A stretch of 64,000 nt of DNA, from the NCBI GenBank assembly GCA_031416075.1, contig JANOSY010000088.1, forward strand, positions 9,504 to 73,503, in the 5' to 3' direction. The position numbers and the translations under genes were made by a program. Position 1 is the stretch's first letter, and every line of letters begins with the position of its first letter. Below are positions 31,010 through 44,711 of the stretch, in pieces. The DNA is from Candidatus Tenderia sp. (lineage in GTDB: Bacteria; Pseudomonadota; Gammaproteobacteria; Tenderiales; Tenderiaceae). The notes beneath the pieces are model-generated. The model ran no database searches and was not told where the DNA came from. It was given only the letters and a program-made list of their open reading frames with translations.

Positions 31010-31492
31010 ATGAAGATAGGCAATCTCATCACCCTACTACTGCTGGCACTGTCAGGCATCGGAGCAGCATTGGCCGACGGCGGCATTGAACTCACCATGG
31101 TCGCTCAGGAGCAGATCATCAGCCAGGATGCCAATGGCAAACAGGTAATCACCCTAACCAACCCCGCCTCTGTTGTGCCCGGCGACACCATTGTCTACAC
31201 CACCCACTACCGCAACAAGGGCAAAGTAATTGCGGAAAACGTGGTGATCACCAATCCCATCCCCAGCGACACCGCCTATATCACCCACAGCGCTTCCCAG
31301 GCAAATGCCAGCGTCAGTTACTCCGTGGATGGTGGCAAGCAGTTTGATACTCCGGCCAACCTGACCATCACCGGCAGCGACGGCAAACCACGCCCCGCCA
31401 CCGCCAATGACTACAGCCATATTCGCTGGACCCTGAAAAGCATCGCGCCCGACGCCAGTGGCAGTGTCAATTTTCACGCCCTGGTGCGCTAA
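31010..31492 (+). CDS. Small secreted DUF11-type (conserved repeat domain) protein
   Basis: AAGGAG lies 7 nt before the ATG at 31010. Signal peptide MKIGNLITLLLLALSGIGAALA. The DUF11-like core is VVPGDTIVYTTHYRNKGKVIAENVVITNPIP. The ORF track starts 25 codons earlier, at 30935. Confidence 0.75.
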   Translation: MKIGNLITLLLLALSGIGAALADGGIELTMVAQEQIISQDANGKQVITLTNPASVVPGDTIVYTTHYRNKGKVIAENVVITNPIPSDTAYITHSASQANASVSYSVDGGKQFDTPANLTITGSDGKPRPATANDYSHIRWTLKSIAPDASGSVNFHALVR

Positions 31493-31709
31493 GCCAAACA
31501 GACAATGAGGCATTTAAACATGGACCGCAACCCACCCACCAACAGCGCCTGCCGGGCGTTTTGTGACATTAAGATCCTGGCCCGAATCCGCGGATCACCG
31601 CACTGACGACCACCATTGTTTCAATCTGACACGCAATAGAAGTTATCAGATGGGCGCGCGGGAAGTGCGCCAACCGAATCAGGGAAGATCCAGACAGGAG
31701 ATTACGAGG

Positions 31710-42000: not shown

Positions 42001-44711
42001 GCACTGAAGTCACCCAGGTAAACAGTGGCATAGAAACCAATAACTACATCCTTAACCTCTCCGGCCAGTCTGGCACCATCCCCACCGGGGCAAAACTTGG
42101 GTTTCGTACCCGTGGTATCTCTGTCAGCCCCAGCTTCAGGATCTATGTGGGTAATCTGGATGGCAGGACACCCAGCAACCTCTCCGGTCATCTAATCGTC
42201 AACGAGGCCGTGGGCAGCAGCGATACCACCGCCCCGGCCAGTGTCACGCTCTCTACCGGTACCATCACCAACAACTCCGTGCTGCTGAACTGGGTATCAC
42301 CGGGGGATGATGGCAATACCGGCACCGCCCAGATCTACGACATCCGTTACTCCACCGCCGCCATCACGGCGGGCAACTGGGCCAGCGCCACCCAGGTAGG
42401 CGGGGAACCAACACCTCTGGTGGCGGGCACTGCCCAGACCTATACCGTGACCGGGCTGGCCCCCAATACCCTCTACTACTTTGCCATCAAAACCGGCGAC
42501 GAGACACCCAACTGGTCAGCGGTCTCCAACTCCCCCAGCGCCACCACCTACGATCCACCGGTGGGTGGCTTTAGTGTCGATAATGTGATCCCCGCCACCC
42601 AGATCAGCCAGTCCACCAACGGTTCAGGCATCATCACCATCAACTGGAAGGGGCGCGACAATCAGGCCAATAACGTCACACTCAAAACCTTTCAGTACAG
42701 CGTGGACGGTGGGGCTAGCTGGAACGCCCCCACCAACGGCGACGCCTCCGCCGCACTCTCCGCCACCTGGAGCAACAACGGCGGCAGTGGCTGGACCACC
42801 GCCACCACCTTGGCTGCCGCTCCTGTCAACAGCTTCACCTTCAATACCAAACATGCCAATGTCTCGGGGTTAAACGGGGTGGACCAGAACGATGTACGGG
42901 TCCGGTTTCTATTACGTGATGCCACTATGGATAGCCAGAGCTATGTCACCTCGACCGATTTTCGTATCGATGCCCTTGCCCCTACCGCGACCATTGGCAG
43001 CGCCATTTACGATGCTGCCAACGACCTGCTGACCATCACCGGCACCAACTTCACCACCATTGCGGCGGCCAGCACCGACATCAAAGCCTATGTCGACTGG
43101 AGCAAATTTGTCTGGGACATCAACGGCGACAACGCCACCACCACCGACATCAGCTTTGTGCTGGGTGACATCACCAGCCTGATCATCACCGACGATACCA
43201 CCATCACCCTGCAGTTCAGTGCCGCCAAAGGGATCGCCATCGAAGCCACCGCCGGCTACAGCACCACAGGCGGGGTCGACACCCTCGATGTTGCCGCCGG
43301 TTTTGCCCGAGACGACTACGGCAATGCCGCCACCACCGATGCGGTGGCCAACGGGCCACTCGTTACCACCTCGGTCTCAGGGATACTCTACGATACCGAC
43401 CGCACCACCAGCCTCGGTTTTGGCATGACGGTACGGCTACTCATCAACGGCGCCAGCATGGGCTCCACCACCACCGACGGCAGTGGTCGCTATACCTTCT
43501 GGAATAACGTCAGTGCCGGCAATGCCATTCTGGTCTACATCGACAATGGTGCCAGCACCGCCATCAGCGCCACCGTTACCGCCAACGCCAGCCTCTCGGA
43601 CTTTGATCTCTACGCCAGCCATCTGGTGGCCCGCCACGATAATGGGGGCGCACTCAGCAACGCCAACCTGGGAAGTGCCAAGGGGGCGTATGTCGACACC
43701 GATATTGTTTACTCCGTCACCGGCAGCGCGTTAACCGTCAGTGGCAGCGCCACCCGGCTACACATCCCGGCGGGCAAAAGTTTTACCCCGGAGGGCAACG
43801 TCACCACCCCGGCCATGAGTAATCTTGGCACCTTTGTCGGCGGCAGTGGTGCCATTACCATCAATGGCAACCTGAGTAACAGCGGCAGTTATACCGCCAG
43901 CAGCGCCACCACCACTGTTGCTGCTGACTTCAGCAACAGCGGTACCTTTACAGCCGCAGGCGGTACCGTGCTGCTTAACGGTATCAATCAAAACATCACG
44001 GGGACCACTACCTTCTTCAACCTGACCAAAACCGTGGCCACCGCCGACACCCTATTTTTCAGCGTCGGCTCCACCACCACCGTCACGGGTAGCGCCACCC
44101 TGCAGGGGGCATCGGGCCAGCCACTGAGTCTGCTCTCGATCACCCCCGGCAGCCGCTGGAACTTCAACATCGGCAGCAGCGCCACTAAGTCCTTCAGTTT
44201 TCTGAATGTGATCGACAGTGACGCCTCAGGCTCTGCCGCTGCCAAAAAACCGCTCATCGCCCAACCCAGCAACTCTACCGACAGCGGCAACAATGTGGAC
44301 TGGTTTGGCCTGCCCTCCATCTCGGTGATCAAATCCAGTACCCTGATATCCGACCCCGTTAACGGCACCACCAGCCCGCTGCATATCCCGGGGGCAATCC
44401 TTAACTATCAGATCCTCACCACCAACTCTGGCAACGGCTCACCCGATACCAATACCGTGGTGGTAACCGATGCACTGGACTCCAGCAAGCTTGAGTTTGA
44501 TGTCACCACCGGCATCACCTTTACCGCCAATACCTCGGGACTGACACTGGGCACAGTGAGTTATGCCCATACCGCCACCCCCACCACCTATACCTACACC
44601 CCCACCGGCCCCTACGACGCCAATGTGGCGGGCATCAAGATCACCACCAGCGGTACGTTTGCCAGCGCCGGTGCCAGCTTTACCCTCAACTTCCGCGTCC
44701 GCATAAAATAG
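39093..44711 (+). CDS. Giant (1872 aa) secreted beta-helix / FN3 / DUF11 surface protein (adhesin-like)
   Basis: Signal-like N-terminus RFIQLCLLATLLLVVLLPRPGVAA. It carries right-handed beta-helix repeats (NVIAGNGGPGIYIVSNSNTVQGNYIG, NVIAGNGADGINHSSTGSNTVQGNYIG), two FN3-like modules, and a C-terminal DUF11 domain (ISVIKSSTLISDPVNGTTSPLHIPGAILNYQILTTNSGNG). Confidence 0.75.
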   Translation: MDSTMRYGRFIQLCLLATLLLVVLLPRPGVAAITATTLFEGSTDGDASAYTGPSLSPSANNLILVWITNTRSSSPTVPTFTGNGLTWVQVATVTWGSSGSPTARTTLFRAMGSSPATGINSIDFAGNTQTGVAMSMIQFNNVDITGSNGANALVQSVTGRTDSASSTAGLSLTLAALGNVANASVGGFSNFINSATSISPGSGYTASSGTTYLAPSISLRAEWKSAGSTIVNVTQSGTSHIGGIAVELKADLCAGNVVTTIANSGDGSLRECIIKANLNPGTTITFNITAAANQSSGANSWWRITPTTALPTITAANTVIDATTQTSNRGNTNTLGPEVELNGATVGAGGWDGFGVASPATGVIIRGFIINQWSGSGISLWSGSGTIRGNYIGTNYAGTSALANTSYGLYLNTNGNTVGGTSAADRNVIAGNGGPGIYIVSNSNTVQGNYIGVNASAGAIVANSGHGVQILSGATGNTIGGTAAGAGNVIAGNGADGINHSSTGSNTVQGNYIGTNASSATLSNGGNGIAISAGTLNVGNASESQSNIIGPNSGAGINLAGGTVNLAGSVTVRGNMALASGTLAMGSATLNLSGNWSRTSTTVTTGTSTVVLNGTALQSLTMNGSNFNNLTITNGSVAGISFNDGFNAANITNTTPASRLTFKAGATYTLSGTLTLVGSSGNQIILLSDSPGTRFTLNPTAGAQSVNYVNVKDSQASTNNITADNSTNSGGNDDAEAAPRWVFNAPDTTPPARIIDLTVTSSTTSSITLNWTSPGDDNNSGTATSYDLRYSTSPITAGNWASATQAVGEPTPLVAGSSQSFSVTGLAAATTYYFVMTTSDEVPNTSALSDSAVGTTGGGGGGNVSYYAKRSNSVSIASGITSNSGSCGTDPTAYYIEELSKNISDMCVTANAYRWEQLTAGSYSDHYFNTAYVANTTVTGVSYQVTIRDSGTVGFQLFYVTSGGTKTYLGTEVTQVNSGIETNNYILNLSGQSGTIPTGAKLGFRTRGISVSPSFRIYVGNLDGRTPSNLSGHLIVNEAVGSSDTTAPASVTLSTGTITNNSVLLNWVSPGDDGNTGTAQIYDIRYSTAAITAGNWASATQVGGEPTPLVAGTAQTYTVTGLAPNTLYYFAIKTGDETPNWSAVSNSPSATTYDPPVGGFSVDNVIPATQISQSTNGSGIITINWKGRDNQANNVTLKTFQYSVDGGASWNAPTNGDASAALSATWSNNGGSGWTTATTLAAAPVNSFTFNTKHANVSGLNGVDQNDVRVRFLLRDATMDSQSYVTSTDFRIDALAPTATIGSAIYDAANDLLTITGTNFTTIAAASTDIKAYVDWSKFVWDINGDNATTTDISFVLGDITSLIITDDTTITLQFSAAKGIAIEATAGYSTTGGVDTLDVAAGFARDDYGNAATTDAVANGPLVTTSVSGILYDTDRTTSLGFGMTVRLLINGASMGSTTTDGSGRYTFWNNVSAGNAILVYIDNGASTAISATVTANASLSDFDLYASHLVARHDNGGALSNANLGSAKGAYVDTDIVYSVTGSALTVSGSATRLHIPAGKSFTPEGNVTTPAMSNLGTFVGGSGAITINGNLSNSGSYTASSATTTVAADFSNSGTFTAAGGTVLLNGINQNITGTTTFFNLTKTVATADTLFFSVGSTTTVTGSATLQGASGQPLSLLSITPGSRWNFNIGSSATKSFSFLNVIDSDASGSAAAKKPLIAQPSNSTDSGNNVDWFGLPSISVIKSSTLISDPVNGTTSPLHIPGAILNYQILTTNSGNGSPDTNTVVVTDALDSSKLEFDVTTGITFTANTSGLTLGTVSYAHTATPTTYTYTPTGPYDANVAGIKITTSGTFASAGASFTLNFRVRIK
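41331..41660 (+). repeat. FN3-like module, copy 1 (internal duplication within the 1872-aa gene)
   Basis: DTTPPARIIDLTVTSSTTSSITLNWTSPGDDNNSGTATSYDLRYSTSPITAGNWASATQ...TTYYFVMTTSDEVPN. It shares a near-identical nucleotide stretch (catcacggcgggcaactgggccagcgccac) with copy 2. Confidence 0.8.
42222..42548 (+). repeat. FN3-like module, copy 2
   Basis: DTTAPASVTLSTGTITNNSVLLNWVSPGDDGNTGTAQIYDIRYSTAAITAGNWASATQ...TLYYFAIKTGDETPN. Confidence 0.8.

Follow-up and report, generated by a model that had tools for sequence, protein, structure and literature searches.

The four genes at positions 31010-44711 of the window (the whole 64-kb stretch of DNA analysed) may encode a chaperone-free, usher-like surface-fibre (pilus or adhesin) system with a split CLIPPER (DUF11) Ig domain as its building block, a reading to which we give about an even chance of being correct. 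The cassette itself is widespread and undescribed.

The cassette and its recurrence in other genomes

The locus consists of the following elements.

30445-31009, + strand: divergent intergenic region between guaB and gene A, 565 nt, AT-rich, presumed promoter/regulatory region of the cassette
31010-31492, + strand: gene A, ORF of 160 aa, ATG start, AAGGAG Shine-Dalgarno sequence 8 nt upstream
31543-31566, + strand: weak hairpin (7-bp stem) and U-run (UUUUGUG) after gene A, low confidence
31710-32771, + strand: gene B, ORF of 353 aa, two-domain pilin-like protein with putative donor and acceptor elements
32777-39073, + strand: gene C, ORF of 2098 aa, giant outer-membrane protein, putative donor-only class
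39093-44711, + strand: gene D, ORF of 1872 aa, Sec-dependent, variable adhesin-like protein, putative acceptor-only class

Re-derivation of the coordinates returned the four ORFs of the earlier note, all on the + strand, with gaps of 217 nt (A-B), 5 nt (B-C) and 19 nt (C-D). In the 30-32 kb bin, which covers the region upstream of gene A, the GC content is down to about 0.50; the promoter-like matches in 30445-31009 are consensus matches only. The hairpin in the 217-nt gap is a possible attenuator, at low confidence: it is not significant against shuffled sequences (z -0.11), and the terminator scan gave no match there.

Relatives of C occur in at least 542 species genomes of several phyla, and C has more than 290 full-length homologues. 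Among 53 complete loci, a B-type gene is always present (53/53), at least two B-type genes are found in 43/53, and an A-type gene in 49/53. Upstream of C, the gene order is B-A-B-C in 33/53 loci and A-B-C in 7/53; Geomobilimonas has the identical four-gene order. This recurrence of the gene set beside C relatives of different species argues against chance, and it supplies the co-occurrence on which the earlier proposal depended. A, B and C form the conserved core, to which a second B-type gene is usually added. The D-type gene is less constant, being present in 30/53 loci (57%, counted within 10 kb on either side). It encodes a large adhesin that is variable and interchangeable, and it lies on either side or strand of C.

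Only two families recur around C in related loci, namely C itself and an acceptor-domain family with 186 members in 64 loci; nothing else does, be it a chaperone, a sortase or an ATPase. As reported earlier, the cassette lacks an usher, PapD-like chaperone, sortase, POTRA/TpsB, autotransporter, T1SS and T2SS. None of these is encoded elsewhere in the 64-kb window or recurs in 80 related loci, and the window as a whole encodes no known export pathway.

Incomplete terminal domains and candidate donor strands

The elements on which the split-domain reading is based are as follows.

31010-31492, + strand: A, signal peptide (residues 1-22) and single CLIPPER/DUF11 domain that stops after strand F
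31797-31904, + strand: B residues 30-65, donor-like strands directly after the signal peptide, LTASGTNISNSATVNYNV...TSNTETFMVD, Asn39 at nt 31824-31826
32385-32768, + strand: B residues 226-353, CLIPPER 'acceptor' domain without its last strands, ending ...ATVKIRAEIQ at the protein C-terminus, Lys234 at nt 32409-32411, Asp279 at nt 32544-32546
32912-33022, + strand: C residues 46-82, donor-like strands at the mature N-terminus, VPPGTIISNVASINYTIGG...SSNIDQFTV, Asn54 at nt 32936-32938
44313-44708, + strand: D residues 1741-1872, terminal CLIPPER 'acceptor' domain without its last strands, ending ...FTLNFRVRIK, Lys1747 at nt 44331-44333, Asp1793 at nt 44469-44471

Each of A, B and D has at its C-terminus a CLIPPER/DUF11 Ig domain that stops after strand F and is therefore short of the last two strands of the fold. 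The similar terminal strand, described before for three of the four proteins, is a family-wide property: in 171 of the 187 ORFs of related loci that have a C-terminal copy, the profile of the C-terminal domain of B stops 0-2 residues short of the protein end. A is a secreted single-DUF11 protein as first described (Pfam DUF11, E 1.7e-8; TIGR01451, E 8e-12). For B, called a double-DUF11 protein, the C-terminal domain alone matches the DUF11-type repeat TIGR01451 (residues 253-291; score 27 bits, cut-off 24), which bears out half of that description, although the AF2 model contains two Ig-like sandwiches. The small proteins, B included, are predicted to be pilin-like by fold. In D, described as a beta-helix/FN3 protein with a terminal DUF11 domain, two fn3 domains are present (756-838 and 1048-1145; E 1e-13), but the Beta_helix match in the beta-helix-like region (about 250-720) is sub-threshold (22.1 bits against 25.9, E 1.3e-4). 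The last ~130 aa of D have no Pfam match, but the domain is 32% identical to B 229-353 (E 8e-12).

Once the signal peptide is removed, B and C both begin with a conserved segment, G-T-x-I-x-N-x-A-x-V-x-Y ... S-N ... F-x-V, whose I-x-N-x-A-x-V-x-Y motif appears to resemble the missing Asn-bearing strands. This donor motif is found in 76/100 B-type and 47/65 C-type proteins, as against 0/50 A-type proteins, 1/32 D-type N-termini and 7/672 other proteins (a background of about 1%); some of the ORFs without the strict motif (24/100 B-type, 18/65 C-type) are truncated or mis-started. The distant C members P0073, P0085, P0089 and P0097 also carry it. Within the segment, N39 (54/56), A41 (52/56), Y45 (53/56) and Q52 (52/56) are conserved in B, and T31, A41 and V64 are invariant in a set of 65 sequences. 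An hhalign comparison of the C N-terminal family with the B family (Prob 95.7%, E 8.5e-9, C 42-119 on B 27-102) indicates that the mature N-terminus of C is homologous to the pilin-like N-terminus of B. By profile, donor and acceptor occur together in 94 proteins of 250-600 aa; the acceptor alone is found in 52 small and 29 large proteins, and the donor alone in the large C-type proteins. Judged from sequence, A and D would thus be acceptor-only, B donor-plus-acceptor and C donor-only.

The residues of the isopeptide triad are divided in the same manner. Lys and Asp are in the terminal domains of B-type proteins (K234 and D279 each 56/56; K in 97/97 aligned domains) and of D-type proteins (K in 28/28 aligned, D in at least 80%); the matching Asn is found only in the N-terminal strand (54/56), and D-type proteins have no such strand of their own. 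9IFR, a solved CLIPPER domain, has the triad Lys715/Asp748/Asn806 (PMC12617251); its Asn stands 22 residues from the end of the domain, in agreement with the position of the donated strand. A lacks both Lys and Asp, with N at the Asp position (NPIPS), as does the A-type family consensus; K and D are therefore not required for the fold.

When its own N-terminal strands were appended after the acceptor domain of B, the complete-CLIPPER profile score rose in 49/56 cases, with a median gain of +2.2 bits as against +0.3 for shuffled strands (p 3e-5), which lends slight support to the split-domain reading. The likeness of the donor segments to the last strands of a complete CLIPPER domain is one of motif and position; a short profile built from these strands gave no significant match to the donors.

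Alternatively, the terminal CLIPPER domain of A, B and D could be a secretion and attachment signal comparable to the T9SS CTD, with C exporting and holding cargo singly: the N-terminal strand of C would capture the cargo, B would be closed in cis, and no polymer would form. We consider this unlikely, although several observations fit it. The conserved Ig-like domain with which varied cargo proteins end recalls T9SS CTD signals; the N-terminal strands of B are placed confidently in the AF2 monomer (pLDDT ~94), which is compatible with permanent cis complementation in a nested domain, as in GBS104/RrgB, and also weighs against the fibre reading; and nested cis domains are known in GBS104 (boundaries 137-211 plus 587-717). 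However, this reading gives no reason for a C-homologous donor motif on B-type proteins, which all 53 loci encode, usually twice, and it limits the capacity to one cargo per C molecule. Moreover, neither relatives of PorL/M/K/N, PorU or PorV nor a Por_Secre_tail match were found, and TM-scores of the C barrel to SprA are only ~0.2.

The giant outer-membrane protein

Beyond its donor-like strands, C contains the following regions.

33893-35416, + strand: residues 373-880, stalk of Ig-like/transthyretin-like domains (Pfam; family consensus)
35444-35812, + strand: residues 890-1012, OmpA-like peptidoglycan-binding domain (NRRVE at 1003)
35954-36586, + strand: residues 1060-1270, two Ig-like beta domains before the barrel (AF2 model m3a39acb4db2f, fragment residues 1-210, pLDDT ~80-92)
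36716-39022, + strand: residues 1314-2082, giant beta-barrel (AF2), then a short C-terminal helix

The domain content described earlier, namely DUF11 repeats, an OmpA domain and a barrel, is borne out. The stalk comprises CarboxypepD_reg (373-458), a DUF11 match (510-603; complete CLIPPER 510-640), an SdrD_B-like module (660-713) and a second CLIPPER-like domain (~745-880), whose DUF11 match at about 753-801 is sub-threshold; by family consensus, both CLIPPER-like cores keep their own final strands. The OmpA domain is matched by Pfam OmpA (E 4e-10, 900-1004), by TssL/OmpA NCBIfam models and by PDB sequences including 4b62 and 5u1h. The C-terminal region, whose barrel nature was a possible point of refutation, is modelled by AF2 (pLDDT 80, pTM 0.73) as two Ig-like domains and then a giant barrel of ~770 residues with about 34-38 long strands by our own count, the last strand ending in a conserved ...FRxKF. 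Its structural matches are outer-membrane barrels only; none of the solved structures is a close relative of the barrel, and neither Pfam nor NCBIfam has a model for it. The OmpA domain has to lie in the periplasm. The N-terminal part of C (~840 residues) therefore either threads its own barrel or is wholly periplasmic; both are possible.

These features also fit a role of C mainly as a tether and porin between outer membrane and peptidoglycan, like Deinococcus SlpA or OmpA/OmpM, in which case its Ig domains would form a long spacer in the periplasm; A, B and D would be co-regulated surface or periplasmic proteins exported by a route encoded elsewhere (T2SS or other). The SlpA S-layer/outer-membrane tether gives the top Foldseek matches (E 9e-9), the OmpA-like domain binds peptidoglycan by type, and, as only this stretch of the genome was read, another export route is conceivable. 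Nevertheless, we regard this role as quite improbable: the OmpA module is optional in the C family, being missing from members P0018-P0024; the mature N-terminus of C is homologous to that of B, as described above; and the strict coupling of C to acceptor-domain proteins across phyla is unexpected for a generic tether.

The order of C, N-terminal stalk and then C-terminal barrel, is also that of a self-exporting autotransporter-like adhesin with its own Ig stalk as passenger. D would then be an independent adhesin, and A and B accessory periplasmic factors, e.g., folding helpers on the N-terminal strand of C until export; an acceptor-only A without the covalent-bond residues suits such a reversible holder. 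We think this very improbable. C has no autotransporter, intimin or TpsB domain. Type V systems have barrels of 12-16 strands, and the C barrel is several times larger. In addition, the Lys/Asp pair is kept in D-type and B-type proteins, which suggests a permanent rather than a transient junction.

Proposed assembly and comparison with known systems

In the fibre mechanism that we favour, A, B and D are exported by Sec, and the N-terminal segment would be the missing strand pair, donated in trans. An acceptor-only protein, D (or A), would form the distal end, with D as the tip; B would build the shaft by head-to-tail strand complementation; and the N-terminal strand of C would capture the last acceptor, terminating the fibre and anchoring it in the outer membrane, with OmpA as a further link to peptidoglycan. 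We infer that translocation takes place through the barrel of C, which would be the conduit to the surface for the folded Ig-domain chain and finally for the N-terminal stalk of C itself; the energy would come from folding and complementation, as it does in chaperone-usher pili. More speculatively, the groove of B might be protected in cis before assembly, and the junctions might be sealed by a spontaneous intermolecular Lys-Asn isopeptide bond, with Lys and the catalytic Asp from the acceptor and Asn from the donor strand, like a natural SpyTag/SpyCatcher pair.

This mechanism retains the usher-like half of the earlier suggestion of an unconventional two-partner or usher-like system, in view of the predicted pilin-like fold and the complementary classes. 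The two-partner half is unsupported, since POTRA, TpsB and TPS domains are missing. The small DUF11 proteins had also been cast together as fibre or adaptor subunits, but A, having no donor strand, could not be a polymerising subunit; more speculatively, it might be a non-covalent cap or a periplasmic holder of donor strands. In other loci, the D-type proteins combine stalk domains of pilin type with beta-helix/NosD, Laminin_G_3 or lectin-like heads, which is the arrangement of tip adhesins.

Chaperone-usher pili (Pap/Fim; PapC/FimD, PapD/FimC) have, as proposed here, Sec-exported subunits with an incomplete Ig fold completed by the N-terminal strand of the next subunit, an acceptor-only tip adhesin with its binding module at the N-terminus, and an outer-membrane barrel as platform and anchor, where an ATP source is unnecessary. 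In contrast, the present locus lacks the usher family domain and the PapD-like chaperone, its subunits are CnaA-like CLIPPER domains instead of fimbrial pilins, two strands rather than one would be donated, the terminator and anchor would be the barrel protein's own N-terminus, and a covalent lock is possible. Sortase-assembled Gram-positive pili (SpaA, RrgB, BcpA, GBS104, EbpB) share the Lys/Asp/Asn triad, the organisation into tip adhesin, shaft and base that is proposed here, and the stalk domains SpaA_4, DUF7601 and SdrD_B, also found in D-type proteins. However, the locus, from a diderm host, has no sortase or LPXTG signal; joining would be via the split domain and not a sortase-made Thr-Lys bond, and the anchor would be an outer-membrane barrel instead of peptidoglycan crossbridges.

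In SpyTag/SpyCatcher, a strand taken out of an isopeptide Ig domain docks again in trans and bonds covalently and spontaneously to the remainder of the domain, as proposed here. That pair is an engineered split of CnaB2, with a CnaB fold and a Lys-Asp bond, whereas our locus would have a natural split of a CnaA-like CLIPPER domain that uses a Lys-Asn bond and serves polymerisation. Type IX secretion (SprA translocon, CTD signal) resembles the locus in its very large single-chain outer-membrane barrel and the conserved C-terminal Ig-like domain on cargo, but occurs in different phyla and uses Por/Gld/Spr components missing here.

Archaeal thread filaments (Sulfolobus Saci_0406) combine donor-strand complementation with proposed intermolecular isopeptide bonds, from the N-terminal amine of Asp24 to Asn57 of subunit n+2, in the absence of a dedicated chaperone or sortase (PMC9715654). 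Both features are proposed for our locus, which likewise has neither; the thread subunits are from an unrelated family and have no outer membrane or barrel component. The Acinetobacter protein B9T28_05395 (PDB 9IFR), a fibrillar adhesin with a CLIPPER stalk, combines an isopeptide triad in its CLIPPER domains with an OmpA-like anchor on a Gram-negative surface (PMC12617251). It shares both with the present system but is one continuous polypeptide with intramolecular bonds, whereas here the domain would be split among separate proteins and the anchor protein bears a giant barrel.

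Organization and conservation of the cassette

The cassette consists of four genes, A to D, whose products have 160, 353, 2098 and 1872 aa, respectively. All four were recovered as ORFs at the positions given by the earlier note, and its gaps of 217, 5 and 19 nt were reproduced by recomputation:

31010-31492, forward strand: gene A, ORF
31710-32771, forward strand: gene B, ORF
32777-39073, forward strand: gene C, ORF
39093-44711, forward strand: gene D, ORF

Good Shine-Dalgarno sequences precede A and B. A scan after gene A returned no terminator, and the small hairpin located there is not significant. 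The cassette is flanked by divergent guaBA (27333-30444, reverse strand) and xseA (44800-46161), and the remaining window contains housekeeping genes (tig-clpPX-lon-ppiD, aroC and pnp-truB-infB-nusA); no secretion machinery was found within the 64-kb window.

The position of the cassette coincides exactly with the divergent junction of guaBA and xseA (28984-30444, reverse strand; 44800-46161, forward strand). Because guaBA and xseA are directly adjacent in E. coli, this position suggests insertion into a conserved intergenic site. The GC content of the cassette (~0.59-0.60) is similar to that of the upstream genes and above that of the downstream 46-56 kb (~0.48-0.51).

Over 290 full-length homologues of C, ~1900-2100 aa long, were identified, and relatives of C were found in at least 542 genomes, one genome being scanned per species. 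Among the matches listed are Gamma-, Beta- and Zetaproteobacteria, Desulfobacterota, Nitrospirota, Lentisphaerota and Verrucomicrobiota; among cultured bacteria, a C relative is carried by Povalibacter uvarum DSM 26723, Geomonas species, Geomobilimonas luticola JCM 17780 and Desulfosarcina alkanivorans PL12. Gene content was counted, using all six-frame ORFs, in loci where C is complete and is preceded by no less than 4 kb of sequence.

Table. Gene content and order in 53 loci around C relatives ("-type" denotes relatives of A, B or D)
B-type gene present: 53/53
A-type gene present: 49/53
At least two B-type genes: 43/53
Large D-type protein within 10 kb: 30/53
Order B-A-B-C upstream of C: 33/53
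Order A-B-C upstream of C, as in the window: 7/53
Order B-B-C upstream of C: 6/53

The earlier note had treated the four genes as one cassette, and the co-occurrence of its members in other genomes, with B-type genes in all 53 loci and A-type genes in 49, clearly upholds this. When neighbouring ORFs were clustered, just two recurrent families emerged, namely the terminal-domain proteins (186 members in 64 loci) and C; genes for a chaperone, sortase, peptidase or ATPase did not recur among the clustered neighbour ORFs of 80 related loci. In the Steroidobacteraceae/Povalibacter loci L031, L036, L043, L060, L064 and L072, a D-type adhesin (~855-873 aa, beta-helix) is located upstream, on the strand opposite to B-A-B-C, so in some loci the D-type adhesin is transcribed apart from the core genes. 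Candidates for natural A-B or B-C fusions proved to be ORF-calling artefacts (L042, L064) or merely longer C proteins.

Terminal domains and candidate donor strands

Profile searches bore out most of the domain calls of the earlier note. The call of two DUF11 domains in B was borne out only in part, as a DUF11-type repeat was matched only in the C-terminal domain (TIGR01451, 27 bits versus a cut-off of 24). A matches the DUF11-type Ig domain known as CLIPPER (35.2 bits versus a cut-off of 24.6). The fold of B is pilin-like. D carries an N-terminal Sec signal, two fn3 domains and a sub-threshold beta-helix, and contains no RTX repeats. The last ~130 residues of D have no Pfam match; they are homologous to the C-terminal domain of B (32% identity, E 8e-12), and only through this homology is the terminal domain of D a putative member of CLIPPER/DUF11 (PF01345, TIGR01451). 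Against PDB sequences, the B-family profile gave no matches and D gave only weak fn3 matches, and the curated profile libraries hold no model for B or for the terminal domain of D. In other loci, D-type proteins have beta-helix/NosD, Laminin_G_3 or lectin-like heads, beneath which lie stalks of SpaA_4, DUF7601, SdrD_B and CLIPPER domains; this head-on-stalk layout is a tip-adhesin architecture.

Residues 225-353 of B were used to build a terminal-domain profile. It matches proteins of all three types, A, B and D, and in 171 of the 187 ORFs with a terminal domain the match ends 0-2 residues before the C-terminus. The terminal strand that the earlier note had seen to be shared (...VNFHALVR, ...VKIRAEIQ, ...LNFRVRIK) corresponds to this end of the profile. 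In a complete CLIPPER domain, as in the internal domain of C and in 9IFR, two further strands are found past this strand, the first with the isopeptide Asn; the consensus of C's internal domain is ...I-x-Y-V-x-x-V-x-A...G-x-A-x-N-x-A-x-A...S-N-x-A-x-x-x-V, and the solved 9IFR domain spans 708-828 with the triad Lys715/Asp748/Asn806 (PMC12617251). Because two more strands come next in the complete domain, A, B and D are shown, at the level of sequence comparison, to end in a truncated CLIPPER domain, which we call the acceptor.

Candidate donor strands occur right behind the signal peptides of B (LTASGTNISNSATVNY...TSNTETFMVD) and C (VPPGTIISNVASINY...SSNIDQFTV), and the two N-terminal regions are homologous at the family level (hhalign Prob 95.7%, E 8.5e-9). 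The donor motif was defined as [IVL]xNx[AS]x[VLIA]x[YFW] within the first 150 residues.

Table. Proteins with the donor motif
B-type: 76/100
C-type: 47/65
A-type: 0/50
D-type: 1/32
All other neighbouring proteins: 7/672

The N-terminal donor segments were not retrieved significantly by a profile made from the final strand pair of the complete CLIPPER domain inside C. Because this short profile missed them, the proposed equivalence between donor and last strands is based on the motif, its position and the division of the triad. A permuted-domain test of the donor strands was weakly positive. Mean-field DCA of 216 B-type sequences yielded mainly gap artefacts and did not reveal which domain the N-terminal strands contact.

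The isopeptide triad of B is divided between the two ends of the protein. Among 56 B-type sequences, all have Lys234 and Asp279 in the terminal domain, and 54 have Asn39 in the N-terminal strand; the terminal-domain Lys is present in all 97 aligned B-type sequences. D-type terminal domains retain the Lys (28/28 aligned) and the Asp (at least 80%), and since the donor motif is found in only one of 32 D-type proteins, they have two-thirds of a triad and no Asn strand of their own. Conversely, C has a donor strand and no core in need of it, because both CLIPPER-like cores within C keep their own final strands. A-type proteins lack both Lys and Asp, with Asn mostly at the Asp position.

In a rival reading, the terminal domain would be a secretion signal for the display of a single cargo, and B would be permanently closed in cis. 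In the monomer model of B, cis and trans complementation cannot be told apart, because AlphaFold would dock the strand in cis either way; the orphan Lys/Asp of D-type proteins, together with the spare strand of C, form the strongest argument for complementation between proteins. From these sequence patterns we consider trans complementation of some kind to be probable, if only modestly so, and a covalent Lys-Asn lock at the junctions to be possible, with the balance tilting somewhat against it.

Protein C and its predicted barrel

By profile, C contains CarboxypepD_reg, DUF11, SdrD_B-like and OmpA domains. The CLIPPER/DUF11 match covers residues 510-603 (26.9 bits). The OmpA domain (PF00691, 40.3 bits versus a cut-off of 27.2) has PDB sequence matches to TssL, OprF and PomB, C having no matches in that set outside this domain, and includes a peptidoglycan-binding-type motif, NRRVE, at residue 1003. 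This domain bears on a rival reading in which C is mainly a structural tether between the outer membrane and peptidoglycan, similar to SlpA; the OmpA module is absent from some C homologues.

Searches of Pfam, NCBIfam and the PDB sequences gave no match to residues 1010-2098 of C, and the curated profile libraries contain no model for the barrel. Residues 1060-2098 were modelled with AlphaFold2 from an alignment of 43 members of the family. The model (mean pLDDT 80, pTM 0.73) consists of two Ig-like domains followed by 37-39 long strands at fragment residues 255-1023 (C 1314-2082), which bears out the probable C-terminal barrel of the earlier note. The number of barrel strands is roughly 34-38, as estimated from the secondary-structure string of the model. 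As modelled, the barrel is far bigger than an usher and is without a specific solved relative. If real, it would represent a new family of outer-membrane barrels, and few single-polypeptide barrels known are as large. Such a family would bear on how BAM folds its substrates and on how folded proteins cross the outer membrane.

At the C-terminus of C (38995-39073), the last barrel strand ends in a conserved ...FRxKF and is followed by a conserved amphipathic helix of ~14 residues (DQxSV....W...). This helix is unusual for an outer-membrane protein, because the beta-signal normally occupies the extreme C-terminus. In the complete internal CLIPPER domain (C 510-640; 34304-34696), this genome has Arg (LQRSA) and Glu (VLTESLP) in place of the isopeptide Lys (L-x-L-x-K) and Asp (V-x-L-x-D-x-LP) of the family consensus, and the intramolecular bond has probably been lost here.

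Proposed fibre, known systems and neighbouring genes

With a terminal domain that is cut short and a donor motif at the N-terminus, the sequence classes are compatible with an incomplete-Ig/donor-strand pattern, in a fold family that differs from that of chaperone-usher subunits. In the fibre model that we propose, D (or A) would form the distal, acceptor-only end, and B with its frequent paralogue would form a head-to-tail polymer, each giving its N-terminal strands to the preceding subunit. The N-terminal strands of C would capture the last subunit, thereby terminating and anchoring the fibre. The barrel would be the export conduit, and C's own stalk would thread through it while the OmpA domain remained periplasmic. 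More speculatively, a spontaneous Lys-Asn bond would make each junction covalent, B might be self-complemented in cis before assembly, and A might be a non-covalent cap or holder. For this model overall, we regard the case as evenly poised.

In its full form, the model describes a new class of diderm fibre: naturally split CLIPPER subunits, each docking its Asn-bearing strands to the core of the subunit before it, where the Lys and Asp lie, would be joined covalently without sortase or chaperone. The fibre would be exported via, and end in, C with its barrel of about 34-38 strands, which would tie it to peptidoglycan. Such a pilus would in effect be SpyTag/SpyCatcher occurring in nature, with an usher that anchors itself, and we regard this full form, taken as a whole, as doubtful.

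In the proposed fibre, the working logic would be that of chaperone-usher pili, and the pilin folds and chemistry those of Gram-positive sortase pili. The cassette nevertheless lacks what defines either pathway, with no usher family, chaperone, sortase or LPXTG, and it likewise lacks the defining parts of secretion types I, V and IX; the earlier note had already seen no chaperone-usher, sortase, type I or autotransporter component in the locus. For the chaperone-usher pathway, no PapC/FimD-type usher (Pfam Usher, PapC_N, PapC_C) was found, a PapD-like chaperone is absent from the cassette and window, and no third gene family is conserved across the 80 related loci. CnaA/CnaB-type pilin domains with a Lys-Asn isopeptide triad are present, as in sortase pili; however, no sortase occurs in the window or recurs in related loci, and A, B and D lack an LPXTG signal and hydrophobic tail, ending in ...HALVR, ...RAEIQ and ...RVRIK right behind a beta strand. 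Autotransporter-like self-export of C's stalk is a rival to export of the whole fibre through the barrel; searches of Pfam and NCBIfam found no 12-16-strand barrel families, POTRA or TPS domain of type V secretion, and the modelled barrel of C has more than 30 strands in contrast to the 12-16 of type V barrels. Type IX components (SprA/PorV/PorU/PorLMKN, Por_Secre_tail CTD) were not found by Pfam, by NCBIfam or in related loci, and Foldseek gave a TM of ~0.2 between the C barrel and SprA. For type I, the sole ABC exporter within the 64-kb window resembles MsbA, and no MFP gene lies next to it.

In concept, the system comes nearest to archaeal threads, for which donor strands and intermolecular isopeptide bonds have been described and proposed, respectively (PMC9715654), and the engineered SpyTag/SpyCatcher pair. 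Several other candidates were rejected: the sfz twisted-stalk cluster of iron oxidisers consists of unrelated BcsB/EpsE-like genes, the "DUF11" text matches of haloarchaeal tafi are to DUF1102, A-D have no CXXCH motifs as would suit an MtrB-like electron conduit, and methanogen DUF11 adhesins were likewise set aside. Because no description of the cassette was found in full-text searches of the freely accessible literature and the curated libraries hold no profile for the barrel, B or D's terminal domain, we rated the cassette as outside the known kinds of system, on evidence that is entirely computational.

If the fibre model holds, the cassette encodes a diderm pilus route with none of the components of chaperone-usher, type IV, type V, curli or sortase pili, and this route is common among bacteria of sediment and groundwater and among metal cyclers. 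It would also answer whether Gram-negatives join subunits by isopeptide chemistry without a sortase-like enzyme, and would provide many natural, possibly orthogonal tag/catcher pairs for protein ligation. Each junction prediction comes down to three residues, and the cultured carriers of C relatives make the model directly testable.

Four further features of the window were recorded:

20545-21243, reverse strand: DUF6901 protein, 7-10 kb upstream of the cassette
22815-23903, reverse strand: HD-GYP-type response regulator (receiver and HD_5 domains), 7-10 kb upstream of the cassette
24825-27263, reverse strand: uncharacterised 812-aa ORF between a tRNA-adenosine deaminase-like gene and guaA
48801-52594, reverse strand: MsbA-like ABC exporter and 673-aa glutamine-hydrolysing asparagine synthase, translationally coupled by a 4-nt overlap

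The 812-aa ORF, which lies among housekeeping genes, has no Pfam match at E 1e-5 and no NCBIfam match at E 1e-3. The asparagine synthase scores 429 bits to the XrtA/PEP-CTERM-system amidotransferase, under the cut-off of 817, and more weakly to lasso-peptide cyclases; with the exporter, it may be part of an exopolysaccharide or peptide-modification system. The HD-GYP-type response regulator could be a candidate c-di-GMP link to surface structures.
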